Shown piece after piece: positions 5,093 through 26,470 of a stretch of 64,000 nucleotides of DNA. Positions within the stretch are counted from its first letter, which is position 1, and the number at the start of each line of letters is the position of its first letter. The stretch is from the NCBI GenBank assembly GCA_016930695.1, contig JAFGGD010000031.1, forward strand, positions 26,519 through 90,518. The letters are read 5' to 3'. This stretch comes from Candidatus Eiseniibacteriota bacterium. GTDB taxonomy: Bacteria; Orphanbacterota; Orphanbacteria; Orphanbacterales; Orphanbacteraceae. A program made the translations under genes and the position numbers. Below the pieces are notes generated by a model, which was not told where the DNA came from, made no database searches, and was given only the letters and a program-made list of their open reading frames with translations.

Positions 5093-5982
5093 GCGGGATC
5101 GTCGAACGGCGGCAGAGCCGGGCGGCGTGGTTCTTCCTCACGCCGGCCTTCTTCCTGATCGTGGTCTTCTTTTTCCTCCCCATCCTGGCCGGTTTCGTTC
5201 TCAGCCTGACCGATTTCGATATCTACTCCATCGGGTCCCTGAAGAACGCGCGTTTCGTGGGGTTCCGCAACTACGCGGGGACCCTCCGGGGCGGGGAGTT
5301 CTGGAACGCGCTCCGGAACACGGCGTATTTCGTTTTTCTGGGCGGGCCCCTCTCGGTGCTCACCTCCTTGGCGGCCGCGCTCCTGGTGAACGCGCGGCTC
5401 GTCCGCTTCAAGGGAGTTTTCCGGACCGTCTATTTCGCGCCGGTCGTCACCACGCTGGTGGCGGTCGCGATCGTCTGGCGCTATCTGTACCACCCGCGCT
5501 ACGGCCTCCTCAACTTCGCGCTGGCGAAGTGCGGCGTCCCCGCCGTGGACTGGCTCGGCGACCCGGCCTGGGCGATGCCCGCCATCATTCTGATGTCCGT
5601 CTGGAAGAACTTCGGCTACAACATGCTCATCTTCATCGCGGGGCTGCAGAGCATACCGGAGGAACTCTACGAGGCGGCCCGCGTCGACGGCGCCGGCTTC
5701 CTGCGGAGCTTCCGCCATATCACCCTCCCCGGCCTCGCGCCGACCTTTCTCTTCGTCAGCGTGCTCACCATGATCGGCTCCTTCCAGCTCTTCGCCGAGC
5801 CTTACGTGATGACCCAGGGGGGACCGCTCCGGAGCACCACCAGCGTGATCCTGTTGATGTACGAAGAGGGTTTCCGATGGTGGCGCCTCGGTAAGGCGTC
5901 GGCGATCGCTTTCCTCCTCTTCGTGATCGTCATGGCCGGGACGATGATCCAACTGCGGTTCCGCCGGGAGGAGCAGGAATGA
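5089..5982 (+). CDS. Sugar ABC transporter permease (MalF/UgpA-like).
   Basis: The GTG start overlaps the SBP stop (GTGA). There are multiple transmembrane segments and the EAA-loop-like motif YEAARVDGAGFLRSFRHITLPGLAP. Confidence 0.85.
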   Translation: MSGIVERRQSRAAWFFLTPAFFLIVVFFFLPILAGFVLSLTDFDIYSIGSLKNARFVGFRNYAGTLRGGEFWNALRNTAYFVFLGGPLSVLTSLAAALLVNARLVRFKGVFRTVYFAPVVTTLVAVAIVWRYLYHPRYGLLNFALAKCGVPAVDWLGDPAWAMPAIILMSVWKNFGYNMLIFIAGLQSIPEELYEAARVDGAGFLRSFRHITLPGLAPTFLFVSVLTMIGSFQLFAEPYVMTQGGPLRSTTSVILLMYEEGFRWWRLGKASAIAFLLFVIVMAGTMIQLRFRREEQE

Positions 5983-6800
5983 GGAGGAAGCTCGGCGCGC
6001 CGGTTCTCTACGCGATGCTCCTTTTGGGGGCGGTGGTGACTCTTACCCCTCTTCTCTGGATGATCGCGGCGTCCTTCATGCACACAGGCGAGGCGGCGAC
6101 CGTCCCGCCCCGCTTCATCCCCCGCGAGGCGACCCTCGAACATTACCGGGCGCTTTTCACCCGCCTCGACCTGACGCGATGCCTGCTGAACAGCTCGATC
6201 ATCAGCGTCTCGGTGACCCTTCTCTCCCTGCTGATCAATTCCATGGCCGGCTACGCCTTCGGGAAGCTCCGTTTTCCGGGACGGGAACGCCTCTTCCGCG
6301 TTCTCCTCATGGGGCTGATGATCCCGGCGCAGGTCGGCATGCTCCCCCTCTTCCTTCTTCTCAAGCAGATGGGGCTCGTGAACACCTACGCGGGGGTCTT
6401 CATTCCTTACCTGGCGAACATCTTCGGCATCTTCCTCATCCGCCAGTACGTGCAGGGGGTGCCGGACGATCTTCTCGACGCGGCGCGCATCGACGGCGCC
6501 GGCGAGTTCCGCATCTTCCGCGTCGTGGTGCTCCCCCTGATCCGTCCGATTCTGGTCACGCTTGCGGCGTTCACCTTCATCAGCGTTTGGAACGACTTCC
6601 TCTGGCCGCTCATCATGCTGAGCGACGAGGCGAAGTACACGCTCCCGGTGGCGCTGGCGGGCCTCGTCGGCGAGCACGTGCAGGACACGGAGCTGATGAT
6701 GGCCGGCTCGGTGATCACCACCCTCCCGGTTCTCGCCGTCTTCCTCTTCTTCCAGAGGGTCTACGTAAAGGGGATCATGGCGGGCGGGGTGAAAGGTTAG
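5979..6800 (+). CDS. Sugar ABC transporter permease (MalG/UgpE-like).
   Basis: An ATGA overlap joins it to the upstream permease. The EAA motif LLDAARIDGAGEFRIFRVVVLPLIRP is present. No ATPase gene sits in the operon, so the ATPase is presumably shared and encoded elsewhere, as with MsmK. Confidence 0.85.
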   Translation: MRRKLGAPVLYAMLLLGAVVTLTPLLWMIAASFMHTGEAATVPPRFIPREATLEHYRALFTRLDLTRCLLNSSIISVSVTLLSLLINSMAGYAFGKLRFPGRERLFRVLLMGLMIPAQVGMLPLFLLLKQMGLVNTYAGVFIPYLANIFGIFLIRQYVQGVPDDLLDAARIDGAGEFRIFRVVVLPLIRPILVTLAAFTFISVWNDFLWPLIMLSDEAKYTLPVALAGLVGEHVQDTELMMAGSVITTLPVLAVFLFFQRVYVKGIMAGGVKG

Positions 6801-6807
6801 AAGACCG

Positions 6808-9800
6808 ATGAAAAATGGGCTCGCCCTTTTTCTTCTCGCCGCCGTCCTCTCGATCGTTTCGTCCGCCGGCGCGGCGGACACCGTCTCGGGGACGGAGACG
6901 ATCCTTCTCGACGACTTCGCAAGCCTCGATGGATGGACCGCCCATCCCTCCGACGGGGTGGAGGCGGTTCTCCGCGAGGAGAACGGCGCGCTCCGCGTCG
7001 ATTTCCGTTTTCTCTCCGGCGCCGGCTACGCCGTCTTCCGCAAGGATTTCGCCGTCAATCTCCCGGAGAACTACGCCTTCACCTTCCGCGTGCGCGGCGA
7101 CGCGCCTCCGAACCATCTGGAGTTCAAGCTGATCGACGCGACCGGCGAGAACGTCTGGTGGTCGGTTCTCCGGGACCACGAATTTCCGAACGAGTGGGAG
7201 ACGATCCGGATCAAGAAGAGGAAGATCTCCTTCGCCTGGGGACCGGCGGGCGGGGGCGAACCGTCGGAGATCGCGGCGATCGAGTTCGCCGTCACCGCCG
7301 GGAGCGGGGGTTCGGGGACGGTCTGGATCGACGACCTCGCCCTCACGCCCCTCCCGCCGCCCAATCCGAATCCCCCCGCGCCGGTCGTCGCCGGCTGTTC
7401 GTCCTTCCGGCCGGGACATGAACCGGAGAAGGCGATCGACGGGGACGATAACACCTATTGGAGTACTGTCGAAGGCGACACCGATCATTGGATCGAATTC
7501 GATCTGGGCGTCCCCCGGGAACTCTCCGGGCTGTATGTACTGTGGCATGTTCGTCCACGTAAGATCGATATTCGGGTTTCGGATGATGGAAACGAATGGC
7601 GCCTGATACGCGATGCGAAATGGCGAACAATCTACTGCGGTGGTGTAAATTTCTATAGATTGGAATTGGTCTTTCTGCCCGAGACGGAGGCGACCAGGCT
7701 TCGATTGGATATGAAGTCTACACATCTTGGGATTAAAGAAATACGGATCCAACCGCTCGAATGGGCGGCGACGAGAAACGACATCTTCGAGAGGATCACG
7801 GAGAACTCGCCCCGGGGGATGTACCCGAGAGGGATGACCGGCGAGGCGGTCTACTGGACGACGGTCGGCGCCGACGGCGGAATCGTCAACGGATTGATCA
7901 GCGAAGACGGGGCCGTGGAGGTCGGGCCGGGATCGTTCTCCATCGAGCCGTTCCTATTCGATGATCTCTATACTACCGGTTGGGACGGATCGGAGATCAC
8001 TTATTCCCTCAAGGAGAGTCTCTTTCCTGTTCCGACGGTGACCCGACGACACCGCGACCTTCTTCTTGAAATCACCGCTTTTGCGGTGGAGAAGGAGGCG
8101 GCATCATCAATGGTCATGCATTATCGATTGAGAAACAAAAAGAGATATCCCCAAAGGGGCCAGTTCCTATTGGCTCTCCGGCCTTTCCAGGTCAATCCTC
8201 CCTATCAGTTTCTGAATGTAACCGGCGGGACGGCGAGAGTGGATTCGATCGAGAATAGCGGATCGAAGGTGCGTGTGAATGGAAGGAAATGGGTATTTTT
8301 CTTGCGAAAACCGGATGGTTCTTTTCCCGCCGTTTTCGAAAAGGGAATGAGGATCAAGATGTTTACGGAATCGCGTTGGGGTAATGGATACATTCCTTTT
8401 TGCAAAGACTGGGATTCCGTGACCGATCCCTTCGGCGCCGCGTCGGCTGTGTTCGTCTACCCCTATTATATTCCCCCCGGCGAAGAGATGCGTGTCGATT
8501 GGGTAATCCCTCTCGACGGTGAGCCGATCCTTCCGGAGGAGGAGGGAGAGGCCGCCGCCGCGGAATGGGTCGACCGGGAACTGGAGAAAGCGATCGAGAG
8601 ATGGCGGGAACGCCTCGGACCGGTGACGATCGACCTCCCCGACAAGGAGGTGGAAAACACGCTGAAGAGCCAGATCGGCTACATCCTGGTGAACCGCGCC
8701 GGTCCCGCGATCCGTCCCGGGACGCGCTCCTACGCCCGCTCCTGGATACGGGACGGGGCGCTCACCTCCTCGGCGCTCCTCCGCCTCGGGATCGACGAGC
8801 CGGCTCGGGAGTTCCTCGAATGGTTCGCGCCGCACCAGTACGAGAGCGGCAAGATCCCCTGCGTCGTCGACGACCGGGGCGCCGATCCCGTTCCGGAGCA
8901 CGACAGCTCAGGCGAGTTCCTCTTCCTGATCGCCGAGATCGTTCGCTATACGAAGGATCGCGCGCTCGCCGATGAGATGTGGCCCCGCGCCGAGGCGGCG
9001 GCGGCGTACCTCGACTCCTTGCGCGGCACGAGGCGCACCGACGAGTACCGTACGCCGGAGAAGAGACACTTCTTCGGGCTCCTTCCCCCTTCGATCAGCC
9101 ATGAAGGATACTCGGCGAAACCGATGCACTCCTACTGGGACGACTTCTGGGCGCTCCGCGGATTCCGGGACGCGGCCTACCTCGCCGGCGTCGTCGGGCG
9201 CGAGGCGGAGAGGGAACGCTGGGCCGCGGTCGCGGAGGAGTTCGCCGCCGATCTGGCCGCCTCCATCGCGGCGGCGATGGAGCACCACGGGATCGACTAC
9301 GTTCCCGGATGCGCCGACCTGGGAGATTTCGATCCCACGTCGACCACAATCGCTCTCTCTCCCGTCGGCGCCGGGGATCTCGCCCCCGAGGGGGCCATCC
9401 GCCGCACCTTCGAACGGTACGGGGAGTTCTTCGAGGAACGGCGGACCACCGGCAAGTGGGAGGCGTTCACCCCCTATGAGCTCCGGAACATCGGCGCCTT
9501 CGCCCGTCTCGGCATGCGGGGGGAGATCGCCGGGATGCTGGAGTGGTTCCTCCGTTACAGGCGGCCGCAAGGTTGGAACCACTGGGCGGAAGTGGTCTGG
9601 AAAGAGGAGAGGCTCCCCCGTTTCATCGGCGACATGCCGCACACATGGGTCGGCTCCGACTTCATCCGTTCCGTGCTCGACATGCTCGCCTTCGTCCGCG
9701 AATCGGACGGGGCGATCGTCGTGGGAGCGGGAATACCCGTCGAATGGCTGGCCGGCGAGGGGGTGAGCGTGAAGAATCTACAGACCCCCTACGGGACGAT

Positions 9801-10002
9801 CGGATTCATCATGCTGCACGAGGGGGAGGAGACGCGAATCGACGTGGAGGGGACGGCGATGCCCCCCGGCGGAATCGAACTCCGCGCCCCCTTCGATGGA
9901 TCGATCGAGTCGGCGACCGTGAACGGCGCGCCCGCCTCGCCCGGCCCGGAGGGGGAAATCCTCGTGCGCGCCCTTCCGGCGCGGGTCGTGCTGAAGCGGT
10001 GA
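6808..10002 (+). CDS. Secreted multidomain protein: signal peptide, CBM-like beta-sandwich, Pro-rich linker, F5/8 type C (discoidin) domain, and an (alpha/alpha)6 glycoside-hydrolase-like domain (GH15-like, tentative).
   Basis: The signal peptide is MKNGLALFLLAAVLSIVSSAGA. The discoidin motif is KAIDGDDNTYWSTVEGDTDHWIEFDL. The C-terminal half carries SWIRDGALTSSALLRLG, reminiscent of the GH15 WxRD region; the family is unconfirmed. Two markedly lower-GC patches (about 7540-7770 and 7960-8460) lie inside the gene. Confidence 0.6.
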   Translation: MKNGLALFLLAAVLSIVSSAGAADTVSGTETILLDDFASLDGWTAHPSDGVEAVLREENGALRVDFRFLSGAGYAVFRKDFAVNLPENYAFTFRVRGDAPPNHLEFKLIDATGENVWWSVLRDHEFPNEWETIRIKKRKISFAWGPAGGGEPSEIAAIEFAVTAGSGGSGTVWIDDLALTPLPPPNPNPPAPVVAGCSSFRPGHEPEKAIDGDDNTYWSTVEGDTDHWIEFDLGVPRELSGLYVLWHVRPRKIDIRVSDDGNEWRLIRDAKWRTIYCGGVNFYRLELVFLPETEATRLRLDMKSTHLGIKEIRIQPLEWAATRNDIFERITENSPRGMYPRGMTGEAVYWTTVGADGGIVNGLISEDGAVEVGPGSFSIEPFLFDDLYTTGWDGSEITYSLKESLFPVPTVTRRHRDLLLEITAFAVEKEAASSMVMHYRLRNKKRYPQRGQFLLALRPFQVNPPYQFLNVTGGTARVDSIENSGSKVRVNGRKWVFFLRKPDGSFPAVFEKGMRIKMFTESRWGNGYIPFCKDWDSVTDPFGAASAVFVYPYYIPPGEEMRVDWVIPLDGEPILPEEEGEAAAAEWVDRELEKAIERWRERLGPVTIDLPDKEVENTLKSQIGYILVNRAGPAIRPGTRSYARSWIRDGALTSSALLRLGIDEPAREFLEWFAPHQYESGKIPCVVDDRGADPVPEHDSSGEFLFLIAEIVRYTKDRALADEMWPRAEAAAAYLDSLRGTRRTDEYRTPEKRHFFGLLPPSISHEGYSAKPMHSYWDDFWALRGFRDAAYLAGVVGREAERERWAAVAEEFAADLAASIAAAMEHHGIDYVPGCADLGDFDPTSTTIALSPVGAGDLAPEGAIRRTFERYGEFFEERRTTGKWEAFTPYELRNIGAFARLGMRGEIAGMLEWFLRYRRPQGWNHWAEVVWKEERLPRFIGDMPHTWVGSDFIRSVLDMLAFVRESDGAIVVGAGIPVEWLAGEGVSVKNLQTPYGTIGFIMLHEGEETRIDVEGTAMPPGGIELRAPFDGSIESATVNGAPASPGPEGEILVRALPARVVLKR

Positions 10003-10018: not shown

Positions 10019-10723
10019 TTATTCGTAAATCGCTTTCCGCACCACTTCGCGCCAGACCGCGTACCCCTTCTCGTTCATGTGGAGCATGTCCTCGAGGAAG
10101 AGTTCCTCGATCGGCTCCCCCTTCTCGTTCAGCATGGGCGAGGCCACGTCGATGAAGGCGAGAAGGGTGTCGGCGTCGCACGCCTCGCGCAGCAGCCGGT
10201 TCACGCGGATCGTCTCCGGAAGAAACTCCCGCCGGGAGGGGCTCGGTTTGACGGAGATAACGTGAATCTTCGTGCCGGGGAGGGACGCGCGGACGAGGGA
10301 GACGAACGAGTCGAATGCCGCGAACACCTTTTCCGGCGGCACGCCGAGGGCGATGTCGTTGTCCCCCTCGTAGAGGAGGATCGCCGAGGGGCGGTAGGGG
10401 AGAACGATCCTCCCCGCGAAGAAGAGGGCGTCCAGCATGGTGCTCCCGCCGAACCCGCGGGGAATCACCGTCGCCGGCGCGAGGTCCGCGGCGAGAGTGG
10501 GGTGCCACATCCGCATACTGGAGCTTCCGATGCAGAGGAGCGCTCCTTCGGGTGGGAAGCACTCCCGGTCGGCCGCTTCGAAGGCGGCGATGTCCCCCTC
10601 GAAGCGACGGGGGTCGGGAAAGGGGGCGCCGGCGCGGGCGGGCGCGATAGCTCCGATCACCAGAAGCAGAAGGACGGCCGCCGCGGCGCGCGCCCCCCGG
10701 TCCTCCCTTGCGGATCCGATCAT
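10019..10723 (-). CDS. SGNH/GDSL-family hydrolase (esterase/deacetylase-like), secreted.
   Basis: The signal peptide is AAVLLLLVIGAIAPARAGA. The motifs are LLCIGSSSM (the GDS(L) block) and ILLYEGDNDI...DMLHMNEKGY (the DxxH block). GGAGG lies upstream of the ATG at 10723, which overlaps the GH1 stop (ATGA). Confidence 0.75.
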   Translation of the reverse strand: MIGSAREDRGARAAAAVLLLLVIGAIAPARAGAPFPDPRRFEGDIAAFEAADRECFPPEGALLCIGSSSMRMWHPTLAADLAPATVIPRGFGGSTMLDALFFAGRIVLPYRPSAILLYEGDNDIALGVPPEKVFAAFDSFVSLVRASLPGTKIHVISVKPSPSRREFLPETIRVNRLLREACDADTLLAFIDVASPMLNEKGEPIEELFLEDMLHMNEKGYAVWREVVRKAIYE

Positions 10724-12120
10724 CCTCGTTCCTCCCCGTCGAGAACGCCGCCGTTCGTCTCGATCACTTTCCGGTAGAAGCGGCCGCTCCTCTTCCACGT
10801 TCGCTTTTGGGTGGCATAGTCGACGTGAAAAACGCCGAACCGTTTGGTGAACCCCCGGCTCCATTCCAAATTGTCCATGAGGGACCAGACGAAGTAGCCG
10901 CGCAGGCCCGCGCCGCGGCGGATCGCCTCGCGCGCCGCTTTCAGGTGGGAACGCAGGTAGGCGACGCGGAGTGGATCCTCCACCGTCTCTCCCTCCGCGC
11001 GGGGCGGATCGGGGAAAGCGGCGCCGTTCTCCGTCACGTAGAGGGGGATGCTCCCGTAGAGCTCCTTCAGCCGCAGAAGAACGCGCGTGAGCCCTTCGGG
11101 GTGGACCTCCCAACCGGTTTCGGTATAAAGAGAGTCCTCCAAGCGCACCGACGATTCGCGATCCGGCAGCGCGCCGCCGTCGCGCCGCACCACGGCGCGC
11201 GTGTAGTAGTTGACGCCCAGAAAATCGATCGGTTCGCCGATGAGCGCCAGATCCTCGGGCGTGTAGTCGACCCACGCCGGGCCGTAGATATCCGGGAGAC
11301 CCGCGGGCGGCCGCCCGAGCAAGACCGGATCGAGATACTGGCGGTTCATGTAGATGTCGCCCCGTTCCGCCGCCGCCCGGTCTTCTTCGGCGTCCGAGGC
11401 CGGCTCCTTGGGCTCCAGGTTGGCCACCAGGCCGATGGGCGCCGCCCCCTCGGCCCGCCCCGCCCGGAGGGCGAGGCCGTGGGCCCGAAGGAGGGCGCGC
11501 GAGACCTTCGCCGTCTCCGCCGCGCTCCGATGTCCGGGGGGATGTACTCCCGCCATGAATCCAGCATGGGCGATCACCCAGGGCTCGTTGATCGTCATCC
11601 ACATGGAGACCCGATCGCCGAGCGCGCGGAAGGCCACCGACGCGTAGGCGGCGAATCGTTCCTCCATGGAGGGATCGAGCCATCCGCCGCGCTCGTCCAG
11701 AGCGGCGGGATGGTCCCAGTGGTAGAGGGTGGCGCAGGGTCGGATCCCCCGATCGAGAAGGAGATCGACGAGGCGGGAGTAGAAATCGAGGCCCGCCCGG
11801 TTGATCGAGTTCCCTCCATCGGGGAAGATCCGGGACCAGGCGATGCTGAAGCGGTAGGCGCCGAGCCCCATCTCCTTCATGAGATCCGCGTCGCCGCCGG
11901 CGCGCCGGTAGTGATCGGATGCCACGTCGCCGGTGGAGCCGTCCTCGGTCCCGCCGGGGGCGTGGGTGAAACGGTGCCAATTGCTCGGCCCCGCCCCGTC
12001 CGCCAGAGGAGATCCTTCGATCTGATAGGCGGAGGTCGCCGCCCCCCAGAGAAAACCCTCGGGGAAACGGGAGGAGCGCGGAGGGGGATCGTTCTTTTCA
12101 GCCCAGGATGATTCGGACAT
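10720..12120 (-). CDS. GH1 beta-glucosidase.
   Basis: FPEGFLWGAATSAYQIEG and the nucleophile motif YVTENGAAF are canonical GH1 signatures. The length (466 aa) is typical. Confidence 0.9.
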   Translation of the reverse strand: MSESSWAEKNDPPPRSSRFPEGFLWGAATSAYQIEGSPLADGAGPSNWHRFTHAPGGTEDGSTGDVASDHYRRAGGDADLMKEMGLGAYRFSIAWSRIFPDGGNSINRAGLDFYSRLVDLLLDRGIRPCATLYHWDHPAALDERGGWLDPSMEERFAAYASVAFRALGDRVSMWMTINEPWVIAHAGFMAGVHPPGHRSAAETAKVSRALLRAHGLALRAGRAEGAAPIGLVANLEPKEPASDAEEDRAAAERGDIYMNRQYLDPVLLGRPPAGLPDIYGPAWVDYTPEDLALIGEPIDFLGVNYYTRAVVRRDGGALPDRESSVRLEDSLYTETGWEVHPEGLTRVLLRLKELYGSIPLYVTENGAAFPDPPRAEGETVEDPLRVAYLRSHLKAAREAIRRGAGLRGYFVWSLMDNLEWSRGFTKRFGVFHVDYATQKRTWKRSGRFYRKVIETNGGVLDGEERG

Positions 12121-15100
12121 GATGGGTTTGGCCGTCCTCGTCGAAGGGGATGCGAACGGAGCCTTTTTCCACCGGAAGGGGGCGGCCGTCCAATTCCGCC
12201 GCCGTCACCTTTTCCGCGCGGCGGTTCGGGTTCTCCATCTCGATTTCGTAGACCGTCTCTCTCCCCGGAACCCGGAATCGAACGGAACAGCGCGGCCACT
12301 CGTCCGGCACGCGCGGCCGGATCCGGAGCGCCTTCCCTCCCTCCAGGCGGAGGCCCAGGATCGATTCGACGGCGACCCGGTACATCCAGGCCGCCGAGCC
12401 GGTGTACCAGGTCCAGCCGCCGCGCCCCAGATGGGGCGGCTCGCCGTAAACGTCCGCGGCGATCACATAGGGCTCGGCGCGGTAGACGGCGACCCCTTCC
12501 GGCGAGCCGGCGCGCGTGACCGGCGAGAGCATCTCGAGGAGATCCGCCGCGCGTCCGCGCCGTCCTCGCTCGGCCAGGGCCGCGACCAGCCAGAGAGCGG
12601 CGTGTGTGTACTGCCCGCCGTTTTCGCGGACGCCGGGCAGGTATCCCTTGATGTATCCGGGATCCTGCGGCGTGTCGGCGAAGGGAGGAGTGAGCAGGCG
12701 GATCAGGCCATCCTTTTCCGAGACCAGGTGCTTTTCGGCGGAGTCGAGCGCTCGTTCGGCGCGATCCGGGGGCGCCGCGCCGGAGAGGACCGACCACGCC
12801 TGGGCCAGCGCGTCGATGCGGCACTCCGCGCTCTCCCGCGATCCGAGTGGAGTCCCGTCGTCGTAGAAGCCCCGGAGATACCAGTCGCCGTCCCAACCGG
12901 AATCGTTCAGCGCCTTCCCGAGTCCCTCGCGCGCGGCGCGGTACCGGGCGGCGCGTTCGGCGTCCCCACGCTCCTCGCAGACCGGGATGAATCGTTCCAG
13001 CAGGGCGAAGAGGAAGAACCCCATCCAGACGCTTTCCCCTTTCCCCAGGCGTCCCACCCGGTTCATGCCGTCGTTCCAGTCCCCGGTGCCGAAGAGGGGG
13101 AGCCGGTGATCGCCCACGGCGAGAGAGAGATCGATCGCCCGGACGCAGTGGTCGTAGAGGTCGCCGGACAACCCGGATGGGCGGGGTCGGACAAACACTT
13201 CGTCGACGCCCTCCGCCGGAAGAGGCGCCGTCAGGTAGGGAATCGGGACGCGCCAGACGGCATCGTCCCCGGACGTTTCGACATAAAAAGTCGTTATGTA
13301 TGGTAACCAGAGCCGATCGTCGGCGAACCGCGTGCGGATGCCCGCGTCTTCCGGGGGATGCCACCAGTGCAGGACGTCTCCCTCGACGAACTGATGCGCC
13401 GCGTGAAGGAGGATCTGTTCGCGGGTTTTTTCCGGGCGAAGGTAGACGAGCGCCGAGGCGTCCTGGATCTGATCGCGGAAGCCGAAGGCGCCGCCGGACT
13501 GGTAGAGGGCGGTTCTCCCCCGTAATCGGCAGGCGACGGCCTGATAGGGGAGCCAGCCGTTCACCATGATGTCGAGGGCGGGGACCGGCGTTCGGATGCA
13601 CAGGCCGGATCGCATCCGCCGCCACTCCTCCCGCGCGACGTCCAGGGCGCGTTCGACCGCCCCGTCCGCCCGGTACCGCGCGATCAGCGACCGGACCTCC
13701 TCCGCATTCGATCCCTCTCCGAAGAGGAAGGCGCACTCCGCCGAACCGCCGGGCGGGAGTTCGATCGATATTTTTTCCGTGAAGCAAGGATCCAGGTTCG
13801 CCCCCGTCTCTCCCCCCGGCGGATCGTCGTGGAGGAGCGCCGCCGGACGGGCCGCGTCTCCTCCGGCGCCGAGAAAGGCGGCGCGGTCGCAACTGTAATA
13901 GGTCGGACCGGTCGCGGCCGGGGCGACGGCGGCGGCGAATGTCACCGCCCGCGCGAAGGAGCCGGCGAAACGGTTTTCCGCGAGGAGCGCCTTCCCGTTC
14001 GGTTCGAAACGGGTGACTACGAAGCGGCCGCTCTCCTCGGGGGTCGCGCCGAGCACCAGACGGCGATGCGAAAAAAGGCCGAGCCGGCGCGTTTCACCGC
14101 TCCGGTTCGTCAGGCGCACGCGTGTGATCTTCACCGGGTCCCGCGTGGGGACGAAGAATGTGACCTCCTGCTCGATGCCGAGGCTCTTTCCCCGGAAGAG
14201 GGTGTATCCGAATCCGTGCCGTACCTCGCACTCTTCCGGGCCGTCGGCCGGTCCGGGAAGGGGGGACCGGAACTCGCCGCTCTCCTCGTCGCGCATGTAA
14301 AGCGCCTCGCCGTGGGGATCGCGCAGGGGATCGTTCGCCCATGGGGTCAAACGGTGCTCGCGGCTGTTCCCGCTCCACGTGCAACCGGCGCCTCTCTCGC
14401 TCACCAGGAAGCCGACTCGGTCGTTGGCGATCACGTTGATCCACGGGAGGGGGGGAAGACGGAGTTTTCCGTCCGCCCCGGGGCGGAGGCGGATCACGTA
14501 CTCCGAGCCGTCCGGCGTGAATCCCCCGAAGCCGTTGGGGAAAAGAAGATCGCCGTCTCCTTCGGGGAAGACGCTCGCGCCTCCGGCGTCGTGTCGCGCT
14601 TTCCCCGCCGTTTCCCCGGCGGGGGGTACGATCTCCACGGCGCCTCCGCGGCAGAGATCGGGCATCTCCCTCGTAAGGACCAGGCGGGCCGCCGCCTCGA
14701 GGAGATCCGCCCTCTCCGCCGGTATCGTTTCCCGGTCGATGAAGTGCACCGTCCCTCCGTCGTCGAACGGTTTCTCCGGAGATTGGGCGAGTGACGGGTC
14801 GTTCGTGAAAACGACGAGGGGAAAATCGATCCCCGACTTTTTCCAGTAGCGAAGGGCGCTTCGCATCTCCGGGAGAAGGAGGGCTCCCTCCGGAGAGTCG
14901 GCGCGCAGGACGATGTAGGGCGTACCGGGAGAGAGGCCGAAACGCGCGAGGTCCTCCGGCCGTCCCCGAAGACATTCGAGCACCTCCGGCGCGGCCCGAA
15001 GGGAACGTTGGCCGTAAAGAATCGCTCCGGCGAGCGCCTCGTAATACTCCGCCCGGTCCTCCCCGAGTTCCGAGTCGTCGATGCATCCGCGCGCCCTCTC

Positions 15101-15985
15101 CCGGGATCCGGCGAATGCGCGCTCGGCCGCGCCTTCATCCGTCCAGGTCCGGACCAGCGCGAGGGCGTCCTCTTCGACGGGCGCCACGCCCATCAGGAAG
15201 AGGAAGCGAGCCTCGCCGCCCGGACGCAGGAGCGCCTTTCGACGGAGCGCGAAAACGGGGTCGAGCACATTGCCGGAAGAACCGGAGAGGGGCGTGCCGG
15301 CGCTGAGGGCGAGCGGGTCCGCCGGGGATCGACCACGGCCGAGAAAGAGGGCGCGGTCCGTCTCGAACTCGAGCTTTCCCGCGCCGGAGAGCGCGGCGAA
15401 CATCCGGGGATGTCGCTCCGAACCGGACCGGCCGCGGCGTCTCGCGAAAAGCGCGCCCGTCCGGGAGTCGTGCGCGGTCTGCACGAAGAGCTTGGAGAAC
15501 GCCGGGTGGGCGGCGTACGCGCCTGGTTGATCCAGCACGATCTCCGCGTACCCGGTCAGTTCCAATCGACGCTCCCGAACGGACCGGTTGGCGAGCGTGA
15601 TTCTGCGGATTTCGAGGTCCGCGCCGGTGGGTACGCACGTCTCCATGCGGGCATCGATTCCCCCCTGCCGGCGGTCGATGGTGACCACCCCCGGTTCCCA
15701 CTCCGCGCGGTAACCCGCGGCCCCCGATGGGAGGGGATGCCTGCCGATCGACCAAAACCTCCCGCTCTCTTCGTCCCGAAGATAAAAGAGGAGTCCGGTG
15801 TCGTCCTCGAGGGGATCGCCGCTCCAACGGGTCAGCGCGTAATCCTCCCAGCTCGACCTTCCCGTTCCCGCGCCGGTCATGAGCACGGTATACCGGCCGT
15901 TGCCAAGAAATCGGGCGGGAGGGGTCCTCTCTCCACGTCCGTCGAGGGGGGGAAAGTGGGAAGTCTGTCGCAACGACCTCTCCAT
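12098..15985 (-). CDS. GH94-family glycoside phosphorylase-like enzyme, 1295 aa, with two tandem N-terminal beta-sandwich domains and a C-terminal (alpha/alpha)6 catalytic domain. 1,2-beta-oligoglucan phosphorylase is the preferred guess.
   Basis: GH94 N-domain-like motifs occur twice (FLGNGRYTVLMTGAGTGRSSW and VGFLVSERGAGCTWSGNSREHRLTPWANDP). The catalytic-domain motifs are FGFRDQIQDASAL and GTGDWNDGMNRVG. Its size is close to the roughly 1100-aa SOGP-type GH94 enzymes. Confidence 0.75.
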   Translation of the reverse strand: MERSLRQTSHFPPLDGRGERTPPARFLGNGRYTVLMTGAGTGRSSWEDYALTRWSGDPLEDDTGLLFYLRDEESGRFWSIGRHPLPSGAAGYRAEWEPGVVTIDRRQGGIDARMETCVPTGADLEIRRITLANRSVRERRLELTGYAEIVLDQPGAYAAHPAFSKLFVQTAHDSRTGALFARRRGRSGSERHPRMFAALSGAGKLEFETDRALFLGRGRSPADPLALSAGTPLSGSSGNVLDPVFALRRKALLRPGGEARFLFLMGVAPVEEDALALVRTWTDEGAAERAFAGSRERARGCIDDSELGEDRAEYYEALAGAILYGQRSLRAAPEVLECLRGRPEDLARFGLSPGTPYIVLRADSPEGALLLPEMRSALRYWKKSGIDFPLVVFTNDPSLAQSPEKPFDDGGTVHFIDRETIPAERADLLEAAARLVLTREMPDLCRGGAVEIVPPAGETAGKARHDAGGASVFPEGDGDLLFPNGFGGFTPDGSEYVIRLRPGADGKLRLPPLPWINVIANDRVGFLVSERGAGCTWSGNSREHRLTPWANDPLRDPHGEALYMRDEESGEFRSPLPGPADGPEECEVRHGFGYTLFRGKSLGIEQEVTFFVPTRDPVKITRVRLTNRSGETRRLGLFSHRRLVLGATPEESGRFVVTRFEPNGKALLAENRFAGSFARAVTFAAAVAPAATGPTYYSCDRAAFLGAGGDAARPAALLHDDPPGGETGANLDPCFTEKISIELPPGGSAECAFLFGEGSNAEEVRSLIARYRADGAVERALDVAREEWRRMRSGLCIRTPVPALDIMVNGWLPYQAVACRLRGRTALYQSGGAFGFRDQIQDASALVYLRPEKTREQILLHAAHQFVEGDVLHWWHPPEDAGIRTRFADDRLWLPYITTFYVETSGDDAVWRVPIPYLTAPLPAEGVDEVFVRPRPSGLSGDLYDHCVRAIDLSLAVGDHRLPLFGTGDWNDGMNRVGRLGKGESVWMGFFLFALLERFIPVCEERGDAERAARYRAAREGLGKALNDSGWDGDWYLRGFYDDGTPLGSRESAECRIDALAQAWSVLSGAAPPDRAERALDSAEKHLVSEKDGLIRLLTPPFADTPQDPGYIKGYLPGVRENGGQYTHAALWLVAALAERGRRGRAADLLEMLSPVTRAGSPEGVAVYRAEPYVIAADVYGEPPHLGRGGWTWYTGSAAWMYRVAVESILGLRLEGGKALRIRPRVPDEWPRCSVRFRVPGRETVYEIEMENPNRRAEKVTAAELDGRPLPVEKGSVRIPFDEDGQTHHVRIILG

Positions 15986-16112: not shown

Positions 16113-16157
16113 TTGACATAAGTATGTCAGATGTGCGATCATTTGTAAACGGTTACA
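16113..16157. promoter_or_regulatory. Divergent promoter region between the GH94 operon and lacI, holding a -35-like TTGACA and two operator-like palindromes.
   Basis: TTGACA is at 16113-16118. A perfect palindrome TGACATAAGTATGTCA lies at 16114-16129. A LacI/CcpA-type site TGTAAACGGTTACA lies at 16144-16157 (consensus TGNAANCGNTTNCA). All three lie in the only AT-rich stretch of a 70% GC region. Confidence 0.45.
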
Positions 16158-16252: not shown

Positions 16253-17320
16253 ATGGCGACGATCAAGGACGTGGCCCGCGAAGCTGGCGTGTCGGTTGCC
16301 ACCGTTTCCCGTGTGTTCAATGACAGCCCACTGGTGAGTGAGATCACCACCAGCCACGTTCTCGAGGTGGCGCAACGGCTGGATTATTGGCCGAACGGAG
16401 CGGCGCGGAGCCTCAGCACCAATCGCACCGGCACGCTCGGTGTCGTCCTGCCCGACCTTTACGGTGAATTCTTCTCCGAGATCATCCGCGGGATCGACAC
16501 CGCGGCCCGCGAAGAGAAATACCAGATCCTCCTCTCCAGCTCCCACGCCGCCGAAGCGGAACTGGTTTCCGCGGCGCAGGCGATGCGCGGCCGGATCGAC
16601 GGGCTGATCGCCATGGCGCCTCACGTCGACTCCGCGAGATCGCTGGTCGATTTCGCACGGCACTTTCCCGTCGTCCTTCTCAACCCGGGAATGCCCGCGG
16701 AAAACTGCTCCGTCATCTCCATCGCGAATTTCGAGGGAGCCCGCGCCATGGTCCGCCATTTGATCGGGGTGGGCCACCGGCGCATCGCCATGGTGCTCGG
16801 CCCTTCAGGGAACGTGGACGCCGAGGAGAGGCGGAGGGGTTACCGCCGGGCGTTGGATGAAGAAGGGATCGAGGTCGATCCCGCCTTGGAAATCGAAGGC
16901 AATTTCGATCAGGAATCGGGCTACGAGAGCGCGGCCCATCTTCTCCGGCTCGATCCGCGCCCCACCGCGGTTTTCGCCGCCAACGACTGGATGGCCTTCG
17001 GACTGCTGAGCGCGCTCGCCGACGCGGGGATCCGGGTCCCGCAGGAGATGGCGATCACCGGTTTCGACGACATGAGCATCGCCGCCTTCCTCAGTCCTCC
17101 CCTCACGACCGTGCGGGTGGACGCGGTGGAGCTGGGGAAGAGGGCCGTGCAGCTTTGGTTCGACTCGATTCACGCTCGGGAAGAGGAGCGGTTTTTCGCG
17201 TATCAGGTCCTGCCGACCTCTCTCGTGGTTCGCGGCTCCTGCGGCGCGCCGAACGGAACGGCGGCGCCGGAACGTTCGGGCCGATGGACGAACCACGGGA
17301 GGGAAGAAGAACGGGAATGA
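16253..17320 (+). CDS. LacI-family transcriptional regulator.
   Basis: The N-terminal HTH MATIKDVAREAGVSVATVSRVFN is canonical. AGGAGC lies 6 nt upstream. A periplasmic-binding-fold sugar-binding core follows. Confidence 0.9.
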   Translation: MATIKDVAREAGVSVATVSRVFNDSPLVSEITTSHVLEVAQRLDYWPNGAARSLSTNRTGTLGVVLPDLYGEFFSEIIRGIDTAAREEKYQILLSSSHAAEAELVSAAQAMRGRIDGLIAMAPHVDSARSLVDFARHFPVVLLNPGMPAENCSVISIANFEGARAMVRHLIGVGHRRIAMVLGPSGNVDAEERRRGYRRALDEEGIEVDPALEIEGNFDQESGYESAAHLLRLDPRPTAVFAANDWMAFGLLSALADAGIRVPQEMAITGFDDMSIAAFLSPPLTTVRVDAVELGKRAVQLWFDSIHAREEERFFAYQVLPTSLVVRGSCGAPNGTAAPERSGRWTNHGREEERE

Positions 17321-17433
17321 GGACGGGGAGCCGGGCACGACGCCCGGCCATTTCTTTTCGCGTATTGCCGAACGGGGAAGGATCGATCGGTCTTCCGCTC
17401 CGGCGGGACCGGCGAAAGCAGGAGGATGGAGGA

Positions 17434-19329
17434 ATGAGAGGGAGAGGTACAACGGCCGTACTGATCGGCGCGCTTCTGATCGCGTCGACGACCGTCTTCG
17501 GCCAGGCTCCGCGGGAGGACGCCATCTGGGCGCGCTCCACCGACGGAGCGGCCATCACGTTGGACGGCGTGCTGGACGAACCCGCCTGGGCGTCGGCCGA
17601 ATCGATTTCGGTCCAATGGAGCGAAAACGCCGGTATCCCCGGGAGCGGTTGGAAACTGGAGATCGGTGTTCTACCCAAGGACCCCACGCACGCGACTCTG
17701 AAACTTCTCGTGGCGGACAATCAGCTCTATCTGGGCGCCGTCATTCCGGACAGCTCGATCGGCGGCGGTCCGGCCTTCAACCGTTTCGACGGGTTGCTGA
17801 TGGCGATCAAGGATCACGCGGATACGTACGCCCCCAAGCCGCCGTCGGAGTATTTCTACTCCTGGTGGTACCAGGATTGTCCCGATTCCATGGCGCCGGG
17901 GAAAGAGCCCGGGTTCATCGGCAGGTGGGGGAACTTCCCGCCCTGCACGGAACGGGATTCGACGCAGATCGCCAACTGGGACGCCGTGACCGTGGTGAAC
18001 GGCCTCACCAACGACGACACGGTGATCGATCAGGGCTACACCATTGAGATGCGATTCAACCTCACCCCGATGGGCTACGACGTGACGCAGCCGGAAGGGG
18101 ACATCGTCGAGTGGAACGTCTCCGTCTATGACGCCGATTGGTTCTGGCCGATCAACGCGACCAAGGTGTCCGGGAACCGCGTCTGGTGGCAAGGACCGTG
18201 GGGGAACACCGCGTTCTACAGCGAAGTCCGCGTGCACGCGCGCCCCGACGTGACGATCCATTCCGGCCCGGTTCCGGTGATCGAGCCGGAGCTGCGGATA
18301 TCGAACGGGATCGCCTACGACCCGCCGATCATCGACGGCGCGCTCGACGAGACGGTTTGGGACAACGTCCCCTCCTTCGACATCCGCTGGGACGACTCCA
18401 CCCTCCGCGAAACCTATCCCGCGGTGGGACCCCACCGCGCGGGCCAGTATCAGCCCGAGGTGAACGGCGGGCTGGCGGCCGTTCTGGATCCCGCCGACGC
18501 GACGGTGAAACTCTTCTTCCGTGAGGACACGCTCTATTTCGGGTTCGACGTGCGGGACCAGGTGGTGCAGTACCACCCCGAGTTCGACCGTTGGGACGGC
18601 GTGTTGATCAGCATCGACGATCGCGGTCAGCTGAGCGCCGACTCCACGCTGCTCAGCCAGAGGCTCTCCTTCCAGGTCGCCGGGGACGGGTCCGCCCTAC
18701 CGGGTGATTATCTCCCTTACCTGATCGACTCTCTCGGCGGCGCCCGGCTCGCCCTCGCCCTCAAAGGGGGGACGACCGTCGACACGTTCGGTGTTACGCC
18801 CGACTCCGGTTACACCGCCGAGCTGGCTATCGATCTGACCAAGTTCGGATACCCGCCCGGCCGGGGGGACGGCTCGTTCTTCTTCGGCATCAATCTGTTG
18901 GACGGCGATTCCTTCCTGCCGACCAGCGACAGCTACGGCACCCGGACCTGGTGGTTCCGCGAGTACAACGGGACCTGCTGCCCCGTCTGGGCCTACCTGG
19001 ATCCGACCTGTTTGACCGTCGGCGTGGAGGAGGCGGATCAGCCGAGGAAACCCGGGGTGCTCGGCAACTTCCCGAACCCCTTCCGCGGGGGCACGACGGT
19101 CCGCTATATGCTGCCCGAGCGGAGCGACGTCACCATCGAGGTGTTCGACATCCGCGGGCGCCTGGTGAGCAAGCAGAACCTGGGCGATCAGGAGGCGGGC
19201 CTGCGCTCCTTCGACCTCCGGAACATCGACGGAAGCGCCGGCGTCTATTTCTACCGGATCCGCTCGGTGAACGGGAGAACCGGCGCCCGGAACGGTTCGA
19301 CGACCGGAAAGATGACGCTGATTCGGTAA
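17434..19329 (+). CDS. Secreted protein with two CBM9/DOMON-like carbohydrate-binding domains and a C-terminal T9SS sorting domain.
   Basis: GGAGGATGGAGG lies upstream of the ATG at 17434. The signal peptide is AVLIGALLIASTTVFGQAP. DGVLDEPAWASAESI and IDGALDETVWDNVPSF are twin CBM9-like signatures. The C-terminal domain is GNFPNPFRGGTTVRYMLPERSDVTIEVFDIRGRLV...GVYFYRIRS. Confidence 0.65.
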   Translation: MRGRGTTAVLIGALLIASTTVFGQAPREDAIWARSTDGAAITLDGVLDEPAWASAESISVQWSENAGIPGSGWKLEIGVLPKDPTHATLKLLVADNQLYLGAVIPDSSIGGGPAFNRFDGLLMAIKDHADTYAPKPPSEYFYSWWYQDCPDSMAPGKEPGFIGRWGNFPPCTERDSTQIANWDAVTVVNGLTNDDTVIDQGYTIEMRFNLTPMGYDVTQPEGDIVEWNVSVYDADWFWPINATKVSGNRVWWQGPWGNTAFYSEVRVHARPDVTIHSGPVPVIEPELRISNGIAYDPPIIDGALDETVWDNVPSFDIRWDDSTLRETYPAVGPHRAGQYQPEVNGGLAAVLDPADATVKLFFREDTLYFGFDVRDQVVQYHPEFDRWDGVLISIDDRGQLSADSTLLSQRLSFQVAGDGSALPGDYLPYLIDSLGGARLALALKGGTTVDTFGVTPDSGYTAELAIDLTKFGYPPGRGDGSFFFGINLLDGDSFLPTSDSYGTRTWWFREYNGTCCPVWAYLDPTCLTVGVEEADQPRKPGVLGNFPNPFRGGTTVRYMLPERSDVTIEVFDIRGRLVSKQNLGDQEAGLRSFDLRNIDGSAGVYFYRIRSVNGRTGARNGSTTGKMTLIR

Positions 19330-19418
19330 CGGGATCACCGGCGGGCGGGGGCGGAGGTCCGCCCCGCGCCCGCCGTGGAGGGAGGGGGCCGATCCCCTTC
19401 GGCGAGAACGGAGAGACG

Positions 19419-22085
19419 GTGTTGGGCGACGCGACATTTCCACGCGCCCGGGCGATTCGTGCGGCGGCGGCGGTGCTGCTCGCCGTCCTGATCCCCTGCG
19501 CCGCGTGGGCGGGAACGACCGGCAAGATCGCCGGTTTCGTTATCGATTACCGGGACAAGCCGATCACGGGGGCTTCGGTCACGGTGATGGAAACGGCCCA
19601 GTTCGCCCTCACCGACGGCGCGGGCCGTTTCAATCTCATCGGGATCCCGGCGGGCGTCTACCGTCTCCAGGTTTCGAAAATGGGCCACATGACCGTGATC
19701 GTGACGGACGTGGTGGTCAGCGCGGATCAGACCGTCTGGCTGGACGTGGATATCCCCGCGTCGACGGACGTGATGTCGGTGATCGAGGTCGTGGCGGACC
19801 GGCCGGTGGTGGAGGTCAACCTCACCAGCTCCATGGTCACGCTGACCGCCGCCGAGATCGAGGATCTGCCGGTGCAGGAACTGCAGGACGTGGTCAATCT
19901 GCAGGCGGGGGTCGTGGACGGGCACTTCCGCGGGGGGCGGATCGGCGAGGTGCAGTTCCAGGTCGACGGCGTCACCGTGAACAACGCCTACGACAACAAG
20001 TCCAGCCTCCGCTTGGACCGTTCTCTCCTGCAGGAGGTGCAGGTGATCAGCGGCACTTTCGACGCCGAGTACGGCCAGGCGATGAGCGGCGTCGTGAACG
20101 CCGTCCTTCGGCGGGGGACTCCGGAATTCCGCTGGAGCATCGAGGCGTTCACCGGCGACCACGTGATGACCGGCGGCGAGGATCGCCGTTTTACCGCCGA
20201 TCCGACAAAGCCCGCCTCCGTGCGGAACACGCAGTTCACCCTGAGCGGCCCCACGGGCCTCCCGGAGACGGTCTTCCTCTTGAACGCGCAGCGCTACACG
20301 GACCAGAGCTTCGTCATCGCGGAGCGGCGCTTCCTCCCGACGGACGACTCCGATTTCGAGAACAAGATCTATTATCCGAACGGAGACAGCACGGAAGTTC
20401 CCCTCGGATTCTCCAAGGAATGGTCCGGCGCGGTGAAGATCACCAACACCTCCCTGGGGAAAGTCCGCGTCTCCTATCAGGCCATCCTCAACCACATCGA
20501 GAACAAGCGGGCCGATTTCGCGTACCGCTACAATCCCGAGGGATTGGCGACGCAGAGGACCTTCTCGCTCGTCCACGGCATCGACGTCAATCACGACCTG
20601 AACGGCTCTTTCTTCTATAACCTGAGCCTTCGCCACAACTATTTCGATTATTCCGACTACGTCTACGAGGACGTGTACGACGTTCGGTACGACCAGGCCG
20701 GACCGACGGTCTCGGACGACAACTACGAGCCGGGCGCTTTCATCCAGGGCGTGGATTTCACCCGCTTCGAGCAGAGAACCGAGACGTTTCTGCTGAAGAC
20801 CTCCCTGGTCGGCCAGGCGACGCAGGAACATATGGTCAAGGTGGGCGGCGAGATCCAGTTGCCGGCGATTCGTTTCGGAACGCCCGGCCATCTGGTGTAC
20901 ACCACCGTGGACGGCGTGGAAGCCCTGGTGCGGCACGTGGAAGATTCGCCGGACTTTCCGCAGGTGAGCGAGTACGAGCCGGTGATCGGCGCCGCCTTCG
21001 CGCAGGACCAGGTGGAGTGGAACGACGTTACCCTGCGCGCGGGGCTGCGGTTCGATTACTTCGACGCCCGCTCCACCGTCCCCGGCGATCCGGCCAATCC
21101 GGCGAACTCCATCAGCGGCGCCCCCGAGTCGCACCCGCGGGATACGAGCCGGAAGGCCTTTCTCTCCCCCCGGTTGGGCGTGGCCTATCCGATCACGGAC
21201 CGGGCGGCGCTTCATTTCGCCTACGGTCATTTCGTTCAGTTCCCGCCCATCGGCAGGATCTTCGACAACGCGGACTATCGAATTCTCAAGGATCTGCAGG
21301 CGGGCGGCATCGATTACGGCGTCATGGGGAACCCGGACATCGGGCCGGAGAAGACGATCCAGTACGAGTTCGGATACAAACAGGCGATCACGCCGGATCT
21401 CGGCATGGACCTGACCCTCTTCTACAAGGACATCCGCGATCTGATCGGCGTCGAATTCGTCTCCACCTATAACGCCGCCGAGTACGCCCGCCTGACCAAC
21501 ATCGATTTCGGGAGCGTCGTCGGCTTCACGCTGGCGCTGGACCGGCGGCGCGTCGGCATGCTGAGCGCCTCGATGGATTACACCTGGCAGATGGCTCGGG
21601 GGAACTCGAGCGATCCCCGGGAGACGGCGACCCGCGCCGAGGCGGGGGAGGACCCGCGCCCCCGGCAGATCCCCTTCGACTGGGACCAGAGACACACCTT
21701 CAACATGACGGTGAGCCTCTCCCGGCCGGAGAACTTCACGGTGAGCGCCATCCTGCGCGCGGCGAGCGGCCAGCCCTACACGCCGGTGTTGGAGTCCGGC
21801 TTCGGCTACGGCCTCGAGGCGAACTCGGGCCGGAAGCCGGCGTCGGCGCTGATCGATCTGCGCGCGGAAAAGGCGGTCCGGACCGCCCGCGGGAAGATGA
21901 GCGTCTTCTGCCGCGTCTTCAATCTGCTCGACGAGAGGTTCTTCAACGGTTTCATTTTTCCCGACACGGGGAGCCCCTACTATTCGCGGTTCCCCGTCGC
22001 CAACGCGGTATCCCTGTCCGATCCCACGCGCTTCTACGAGGCGCGCCGGATCGAGCTGGGCTTGAAATTCGGCATGGGAGGGTAG
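19419..22085 (+). CDS. TonB-dependent outer-membrane receptor with an N-terminal carboxypeptidase-regulatory-like domain.
   Basis: The GTG start leads into the signal peptide AAAAVLLAVLIPCAAWAGT. GKIAGFVIDYRDKPITGASVTV is CarbopepD_reg-like. The plug consensus is LQEVQVISGTFDAEYGQAMSGVVNAVLRRG. A long beta-barrel follows. Confidence 0.7.
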   Translation: MLGDATFPRARAIRAAAAVLLAVLIPCAAWAGTTGKIAGFVIDYRDKPITGASVTVMETAQFALTDGAGRFNLIGIPAGVYRLQVSKMGHMTVIVTDVVVSADQTVWLDVDIPASTDVMSVIEVVADRPVVEVNLTSSMVTLTAAEIEDLPVQELQDVVNLQAGVVDGHFRGGRIGEVQFQVDGVTVNNAYDNKSSLRLDRSLLQEVQVISGTFDAEYGQAMSGVVNAVLRRGTPEFRWSIEAFTGDHVMTGGEDRRFTADPTKPASVRNTQFTLSGPTGLPETVFLLNAQRYTDQSFVIAERRFLPTDDSDFENKIYYPNGDSTEVPLGFSKEWSGAVKITNTSLGKVRVSYQAILNHIENKRADFAYRYNPEGLATQRTFSLVHGIDVNHDLNGSFFYNLSLRHNYFDYSDYVYEDVYDVRYDQAGPTVSDDNYEPGAFIQGVDFTRFEQRTETFLLKTSLVGQATQEHMVKVGGEIQLPAIRFGTPGHLVYTTVDGVEALVRHVEDSPDFPQVSEYEPVIGAAFAQDQVEWNDVTLRAGLRFDYFDARSTVPGDPANPANSISGAPESHPRDTSRKAFLSPRLGVAYPITDRAALHFAYGHFVQFPPIGRIFDNADYRILKDLQAGGIDYGVMGNPDIGPEKTIQYEFGYKQAITPDLGMDLTLFYKDIRDLIGVEFVSTYNAAEYARLTNIDFGSVVGFTLALDRRRVGMLSASMDYTWQMARGNSSDPRETATRAEAGEDPRPRQIPFDWDQRHTFNMTVSLSRPENFTVSAILRAASGQPYTPVLESGFGYGLEANSGRKPASALIDLRAEKAVRTARGKMSVFCRVFNLLDERFFNGFIFPDTGSPYYSRFPVANAVSLSDPTRFYEARRIELGLKFGMGG

Positions 22086-26430: not shown

Positions 26431-26470
26431 CGGACGCCGCGAAGGCGGTCCCGGAAGGTAGGAAACAACG

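Follow-up and report, generated by a model that had tools for sequence, protein, structure and literature searches.

What does a soluble protein of glycoside hydrolase family 94 (GH94) with two N-terminal domains do in a bacterium, and on which sugar does it act? The question is raised by a gene at 12098-15985 on the minus strand of a 64,000-nt stretch of contig JAFGGD010000031.1 from a Candidatus Eiseniibacteriota bacterium; this whole stretch is referred to as the window, and coordinates are given within it. We found that the encoded protein is an intact stand-alone copy of the phosphorylase module of cyclic glucan synthases (Cgs), as its continuous alignment with Cgs, its Rossmann-fold-like insert (RFL), its structural superposition, and a conserved Asp pair show. 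It is most likely (probability about 0.75) a cytoplasmic inverting phosphorylase acting on beta-1,2-linked gluco-oligosaccharides or glucans within a proposed import pathway. Beta-1,2-glucans are polymers of symbiosis, virulence, and osmoprotection, and the enzymes that degrade them have been found only since 2014.

The open reading frame, whose strand the initial annotation left unstated, is real. It begins at an ATG, is flanked on both sides by stop codons, and has the codon-position GC of a genuine gene (0.81 at third positions). A deposited counterpart from a Candidatus Eisenbacteria metagenome-assembled genome (MAG) has 1291 aa, is identical but four residues shorter, and is named "glycosyl transferase". 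The gene and its parts are as follows.

12098-15985, minus strand: GH94 gene, 1295 aa, no signal peptide; order Ndom1-RFL-Ndom2-catalytic-C-terminal beta domain
15188-15922, minus strand: Ndom1 (GP1), first supersandwich, residues 22-266 (Pfam PF06165)
14576-15034, minus strand: RFL, residues ~318-470 (Cgs alignment and predicted secondary structure)
13718-14452, minus strand: Ndom2 (GP2), second supersandwich, residues 512-756 (best stretch of Pfam PF06165)
12353-13624, minus strand: (alpha/alpha)6 catalytic domain, residues 788-1211 (Pfam PF17167, E 1.5e-112)
13070-13072, minus strand: codon of D972, the predicted catalytic acid, aligned with Cgs D2528 (8rf0 numbering)

Two N-domain-like segments had been noticed from the sequence near residues 30-80 and 500-560, and Pfam domain parsing unmasked them as the conserved cores of two PF06165 copies (LTRWSGDP...YLRDEESGRFWS in Ndom1 and LTPWANDP...YMRDEESGEFRS in Ndom2). 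The protein thus has two real N-domains, not a single one followed by an unrelated insertion. Ndom1 matches PF06165 at E 5.6e-68 in a scan restricted to the N-terminal 479 aa, and Ndom1 and Ndom2 are 34% identical (BLASTP E 6e-32). The complete protein clears the gathering thresholds of both Pfam families (PF06165, 462.9 bits, cutoff 23; PF17167, 376.8 bits, cutoff 27), and no NCBIfam model matches it. The RFL between the N-domains, about 150 residues long, had been overlooked; it has few conserved residues, and in the AlphaFold2 (AF2) model of residues 21-1220 (pLDDT 86.1, pTM 0.89) it forms four strands alternating with helices (residues ~358-437).

There is a single catalytic domain, as had been proposed, and it carries both expected motifs, FRDQIQD at residues 836-842 and DWNDGMN at 969-975. 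Its functional residues fall in FRD (R837, D838), DWND (D969-D972), and RENGGQYTH (H1128). By alignment, D838 and D972 correspond to D2393 and D2528, the Asp pair that the Cgs authors mutated to abolish phosphorolysis; D2528 was named as the catalytic acid (PMC10901819, PMC11842490). D972 also aligns with the second Asp of DWND in the C. thermocellum cellobiose phosphorylase (CtCBP), and the FRD Arg and QYTH His align with their cellobiose phosphorylase equivalents. Two alignments, of 11 and 60 homologues, show no variation at either Asp, and across the 60 diverse stand-alone homologues the catalytic Asp, the FRD Asp and Arg, and the phosphate-site His never vary. The motif variants are those of Cgs and unlike those of cellobiose phosphorylase (DWNDGMN versus DWNDCLN; ENGGQYTH versus ENAGIFCH).

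An unbroken alignment links residues 24-1243 to Cgs residues 1541-2779 (868 bits, E 1.2e-259), compared with 262 bits for cellobiose phosphorylase, 245 for chitobiose phosphorylase, and 176 for cellobionic acid phosphorylase, and the protein belongs to neither of the latter two groups. The cryo-EM study of Cgs assigned the C-terminal half from residue 1536 to a GH94 phosphorylase with subdomains GP1-GP3 (PMC10901819). The RFL of Cgs (1847-2012) separates GP1 from GP2, and LpSOGP and other 1,2-beta-oligoglucan phosphorylases (SOGPs) are without it; our alignment runs through this region. The AF2 model superposes on Cgs (8RF0/8RFE) as one rigid body, with query-normalised template modelling (TM) scores of 0.90-0.91 over ~1230 columns.

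Lacking the GT84 and cyclase parts, the protein is nevertheless not a Cgs; a full-length Cgs has ~2800-3000 aa with transmembrane helices, GT84, GH189, and GH94, and the 1295-aa frame falls short of this. A split Cgs with the glycosyltransferase encoded nearby was ruled out, as there is no GT84 or cyclase gene within the 64-kb window; nor did we find any other glucan synthase there. The initial annotation had suggested a truncated C-terminal module of a cyclic glucan synthase, and the sequence bears out the kinship (868 bits), yet "truncated" is misleading because the stand-alone proteins make up their own large clade apart from the Cgs modules.

The other resemblance proposed at the outset, to SOGPs, holds for function and architecture (two N-domains, a beta-1,2-glucan catabolic context) but not for sequence, where it is undetectable. 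A phmmer search of PDB sequences at E<=10 did not recover LpSOGP (5H3Z) with the GH94 protein, and the protein falls outside the sequence clade of LiSOGP and LpSOGP, which are 39% identical to each other. Foldseek aligned 5H3Z over all domains (1308-1320 columns, 13% identity, query-normalised TM 0.62), so that the link to SOGPs is demonstrable through fold search alone. Cgs and LpSOGP were the only PDB entries that aligned with the model over the full set of domains.

An ordinary GH94 subunit relies on the N-domain of its neighbour to complete the catalytic pocket. In LpSOGP, which is monomeric, Ndom1 takes the place of that neighbouring N-domain, and a single chain forms the pocket (PMC5309861). 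Duplication of the N-domain is thus already known, from LpSOGP in 2017 (PMC5309861) and from Cgs in 2024 (PMC10901819). Judging from the model, the Eisenbacteria protein would likewise be a single-chain pseudo-dimer, in which the duplicated Ndom1 fills the place of the partner-subunit N-domain. The most conserved stretch of Ndom1, the family-invariant H160-PAFSKLFVQT170, falls in two short helices predicted in the AF2 model at residues 154-167, which may be equivalent to the two pocket-lining Ndom1 helices of LpSOGP.

GH94 is the first of three genes in a minus-strand operon, and a regulator gene diverges from it.

10720-12120, minus strand: GH1 beta-glucosidase, 466 aa, cytoplasmic (Pfam PF00232, E 1.6e-146)
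10019-10723, minus strand: secreted GDSL/SGNH hydrolase, 234 aa, its ATG overlapping the GH1 stop codon (ATGA)
16144-16157, no strand: 14-bp LacI-family-type palindrome TGTAAACGGTTACA, candidate operator, in the 270-bp GH94/LacI intergenic region
16256-17320, plus strand: LacI-family regulator, divergent from GH94, start set at MATIKDVAREAGVS

The GH1 protein exceeds the TIGR03356 cutoff (525.6 bits, cutoff 478.5). The ATG at 12120 is the only in-frame start codon ahead of the conserved FPEGFLWGAATS and marks the start of the GH1 gene; therefore the 23-nt overlap with GH94 that had been reported (12098-12120) is real. GH1 is translationally coupled to GH94. The same order, GH1 directly after a stand-alone GH94, is found in 6 related loci. 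A search for the 14-bp palindrome returned 2 matches, where 0.04 are expected by chance; the second, weaker copy has 2 mismatches and lies at 2277-2290, over the first codons of a GH144 lipoprotein gene. The third gene of the operon had escaped the initial annotation. The 717-bp "gap" after GH1 is not non-coding and holds this SGNH gene, whose product may strip acyl substituents from glucans. As we found no homologue of it in any of the 83 related loci that were searched, the gene is local to this genome and outside the conserved system.

On both sides of the operon and its regulator, the plus strand encodes proteins with predicted roles in the breakdown, binding, and import of glycans, along with others of less certain function.

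2274-3743, plus strand: GH144 beta-1,2-glucanase homologue with a lipoprotein-type signal (AAGC; Pfam PF10091)
3647-5092, plus strand: ABC transporter solute-binding protein, exact start uncertain (Pfam SBP_bac_1)
4825-6800, plus strand: two ABC permease genes, the first truly starting near 5100 and the second at 5979-6800 (Pfam BPD_transp_1 on both)
6808-10002, plus strand: secreted 1064-aa "discoidin domain" protein with a signal peptide (Pfam: discoidin/CBM32-like domain only)
17155-19329, plus strand: protein with a CBM9-like region and a type IX secretion system (T9SS) sorting domain (Por_Secre_tail/FlgD_ig)
18951-22085, plus strand: TonB-dependent receptor, CarboxypepD_reg/Oar-like, true start downstream of 19329
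22091-25405, plus strand: 1104-aa protein
26462-28051, plus strand: second GH144 homologue, with a T9SS C-terminal sorting domain

The best PDB match of the GH144 lipoprotein is the characterised beta-1,2-glucanase XCC2207 (XcSGL, E 1.4e-163); CpSGL follows at E 5e-50. The solute-binding protein has 3UOR as its best PDB match (450 bits) and is a homologue of Lin1841 (249 bits, E 1e-72), which belongs to the SOGP cluster of L. innocua and binds sophoro-oligosaccharides. The second GH144 homologue is probably secreted to the cell surface, given its sorting domain. Since this protein and the CBM9-like one both bear T9SS sorting domains, the Eisenbacteria genome appears, from sequence, to export glycan-degrading proteins via the type IX system. 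Pfam and PDB sequence searches gave no match for the 1104-aa protein, copies of which, 65-76% identical, adjoin a TonB-dependent receptor in three related loci (L002, L005, and L007); it may serve in glycan binding at the surface or in uptake. The stretch from 29041 to 57885 is housekeeping in character, with a PMT_2-type glycosyltransferase, MeaB, two methylmalonyl-CoA mutase subunits, an acyl-CoA dehydrogenase, a sulfatase fused to TPR repeats, and a dcw cluster (penicillin-binding protein, Mur ligases, MraY, FtsW).

To place this neighbourhood, a locus scan with one genome per species gave 80 loci: 54 with a full-length Cgs (2795-3200 aa), 11 with a complete stand-alone protein (1150-1330 aa), and the remainder truncated at contig ends, among them two fragments of the stand-alone type. 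Genes for GH1, the 1064-aa protein, the permeases, the binding protein, GH144, and LacI recur beside the stand-alone GH94 genes, both the 11 complete ones and the two fragments. A beta-1,2-glucan utilisation cluster is found again in L001, L004, L005, L007, L040, L058, and L060 as well as in the complete Massilia genome (L082), where it additionally has a MalK-type ATPase and includes the same type of TonB receptor. The GH1, ABC transporter, and partner genes are missing from all 54 loci with a full-length Cgs; one of these loci (L024) has a GH144 homologue and another (L014) a weak LacI match.

The family is large. More than 900 proteins match the GH94 protein at E <= 1e-10, and the best 120 listed are all stand-alone in length; its members include proteins from Eisenbacteria, Krumholzibacteria, Gemmatimonadota, Massilia, Methylocaldum, and Competibacteraceae. 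Searching the N-terminal 479 residues against 1.8 billion representatives gave 919 clusters at E<=1e-30, a mixture of N-terminal matches (stand-alone proteins) and matches near position 1500-1700 of proteins of 2800-3000 aa. Neighbour-joining trees separate the stand-alone proteins with catabolic context, as one clade, from the Cgs modules. These trees are midpoint-rooted and without bootstrap support, and we used them for the coarse split between stand-alone and fused proteins and for the scatter of forms without RFL; the first tree omits RFL-less loci such as L005, L040, L058, and L060, and database proteins take their place in the second. The stand-alone Cgs-type GH94 clade is large and phylogenetically wide, often mis-annotated, and uncharacterised in the searchable literature. 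Separately, a Desulfobacterales MAG encodes a stand-alone 1333-aa GH94 protein (L062, 9908-13909) that is nested inside the Cgs clade, with a GH144 homologue directly downstream; it may be an independent detachment from a Cgs.

The RFL is present in 89 of the 120 closest homologues and absent from the other 31. The latter are scattered over the tree and include P0010, the orthologue in a syntenic Eisenbacteria locus (L005), as well as P0025 and P0042, and the RFL is therefore dispensable in the stand-alone clade. In Cgs, glucan density extends from the RFL over GP2 to the phosphorylase active site, which suggests by analogy that the RFL may help to hold longer chains.

The most constant neighbour of the stand-alone GH94 gene, across phyla, is the gene for the secreted 1064-aa protein, which occurs in 10 of 13 stand-alone-type loci and lies directly beside GH94 in three further genomes (L081, 6761-9973; L083, 6707-9934; L082, 1-1351). 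In its AlphaFold model (pLDDT 86.9), a pair of CBM-like sandwiches is joined by a supersandwich, an (alpha/alpha)6 domain, and, at the C-terminus, a beta domain. The PDB entries most similar in fold are GH94, GH15-like, GH116, and GH95 enzymes, at only 10-12% identity and target TM scores of ~0.5. Two invariant motifs, RSWIRDG and SISHEGY, suggest that the protein is a glycosidase. It has more than 1600 homologues, and those with names are called only "discoidin domain-containing protein" or hypothetical. Sequence and model together indicate that it probably represents an undescribed glycoside hydrolase family. It is the most novel item near the GH94 gene and the most interesting lead.

The analysis shows directly which domains the protein has, that its catalytic residues are conserved, that it is homologous to Cgs, and that its gene neighbourhood recurs; the substrate, the direction of the reaction, the cellular locations, and the regulation are what we infer. 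The neighbours of GH94, namely two GH144 homologues, a Lin1841-like binding protein, permeases, a TonB-dependent receptor, a LacI regulator, and GH1, point to cytoplasmic phosphorolysis of imported beta-1,2-gluco-oligosaccharides. By analogy, the context of two GH144 homologues, the Lin1841-like protein, and GH1 would also support a specificity for beta-1,2-gluco-oligosaccharides with a degree of polymerisation of at least 3. In the proposed pathway, the T9SS-secreted GH144 would cleave external beta-1,2-glucan, and the fragments would be taken up by the TonB-dependent receptor. After periplasmic processing by the GH144 lipoprotein and the secreted 1064-aa partner, the oligosaccharides would reach the cytoplasm via the Lin1841-like ABC importer. 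There, GH94 would release alpha-glucose 1-phosphate from the non-reducing end, with D972 as general acid, and residual sophorose would be hydrolysed by the translationally coupled GH1 beta-glucosidase. The divergent LacI would repress the locus until an oligosaccharide inducer appears.

Several points weigh against this reading. Our literature search found no reported activity for any stand-alone Cgs-type GH94. The characterised SOGPs are too distant for a transfer of specificity (no phmmer match at E<=10; 13% identity), and the isolated GP domain of Cgs is a weak phosphorylase on long chains (0.725 U/mg). The predicted contact between Ndom1 and the active site derives from superposition of the whole model. 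In Methylocaldum and Contendobacter, moreover, GH94 has the 1064-aa partner beside it but neither a transporter nor a GH144 gene in the vicinity, so a role in scavenging alone may not cover the whole clade, and part of it may serve the turnover of self-made glucan.

A bolder idea about the enzyme, which we hold tentatively and consider rather unlikely, is that it and its stand-alone clade are more than a counterpart of SOGPs: it would be a long-chain beta-1,2-glucan phosphorylase with the RFL as a glucan-binding "ruler", forming an obligate pair with the 1064-aa protein as a new glycoside hydrolase family. The ruler is suggested by the course of the glucan density in Cgs, from the RFL over GP2 to the active site. 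The pair of genes is present even in methanotrophs and glycogen-accumulating bacteria without a nearby importer, which hints at turnover of self-made beta-1,2-glucans.

Among the alternatives, the one that survives best, though we think it improbable, is that GH94 works mainly in synthesis or turnover of the cell's own beta-1,2-glucan together with the 1064-aa partner, for example in trimming or recycling periplasmic or cytoplasmic glucans. GH94 reactions are reversible according to the literature, the nearest relative, the Cgs module, serves biosynthesis, and the constant core across phyla is GH94 plus partner. In Methylocaldum and Contendobacter this pair stands alone amid housekeeping genes. 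In the window, in Massilia, and in the other Eisenbacteria, Krumholzibacteria, and Gemmatimonadota loci, however, the pair sits with importers, secreted GH144 proteins, a TonB receptor, and LacI. The window also has no GT84 or other glucan synthase, and its beta-glucosidase is translationally coupled to GH94.

Less probable again is that GH94 acts on another beta-glucoside (cellodextrin, laminari-oligosaccharide, chitobiose, or cellobionic acid) and that the beta-1,2 context is coincidental. The many specificities within GH94, the generic nature of GH1 beta-glucosidases, and the names of some homologues ("cellobiose phosphorylase" or "chitobiose phosphorylase") would fit such a role, but no other characterised GH94 enzyme scores above 262 bits, against 868 for Cgs, the motif variants are as in Cgs and not as in cellobiose phosphorylase, and two GH144 homologues with a Lin1841-like binding protein stand in the locus and recur in related ones. 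Very improbable is a role without catalysis, in which the protein would only bind glucan or act as a scaffold and would derive from the C-terminal domain of Cgs, whose scaffolding role does not depend on catalysis. Although the D2528A change in Cgs is reported to have a minor effect and truncation of the C-terminal domain to be detrimental, the catalytic and phosphate-site residues are invariant in the 60 diverse homologues, a partner domain to scaffold is lacking, and the gene is coupled to that of a beta-glucosidase.

Neither the architecture nor the chemistry nor the pathway logic is new. To our knowledge, a single Firmicutes clade accounts for every beta-1,2 phosphorylase characterised so far, and the SOGPs that we know of are from Listeria, Lachnoclostridium, and Enterococcus. 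The evidence argues that the stand-alone proteins are catabolic phosphorylases in Gram-negative beta-1,2-glucan utilisation loci. Characterising one of them would correct a widespread mis-annotation, and they could give new catalysts for beta-1,2-glucan synthesis. A comparison of the natural forms with and without RFL would reveal the role of this subdomain in Cgs, and the 1064-aa partner offers a candidate for a new glycoside hydrolase family.

Compared with known systems, the GH94 protein is closest to Cgs. The two are 37-38% identical over ~1230 aligned positions, have the identical domain order GP1-RFL-GP2-GP3, and keep the Ndom1 motif AHP.FS..FVQT, which reads AHPLFSRMFVQT in Cgs. Unlike Cgs, the protein is free and soluble, without transmembrane helices, a GT84 glycosyltransferase, or a GH189/GH144-like cyclase, and its gene lies in a catabolic import locus; the RFL of Cgs touches the Cgs N-terminal domain, a part that does not exist here. 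The dimeric GH94 enzymes (cellobiose, chitobiose, and cellobionic acid phosphorylases; 3QDE, 1V7V, 4ZLE) have the DWND and FRD motifs in common with the protein, and the whole enzymes align with its residues 486-1295 at 24-27% identity. They differ in having one N-domain, an active site across the homodimer, no Ndom1 or RFL, and beta-1,4 substrates.

With SOGPs, the protein shares its stand-alone, cytoplasmic form with two N-terminal supersandwich domains, and its clustering with a LacI regulator, a beta-glucosidase, and an ABC importer with a Lin1841-type binding protein. The two N-domains of SOGPs are less than 15% identical to each other, versus 34% here. The SOGP cluster of L. innocua consists of LacI, SOGP, a beta-glucosidase, and an ABC transporter; its beta-glucosidase is a GH3 enzyme where the window has GH1, and its Gram-positive host is without TonB, T9SS, or GH144 parts. 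The window thus parallels the layout of the L. innocua cluster and adds parts specific to a cell with an outer membrane.

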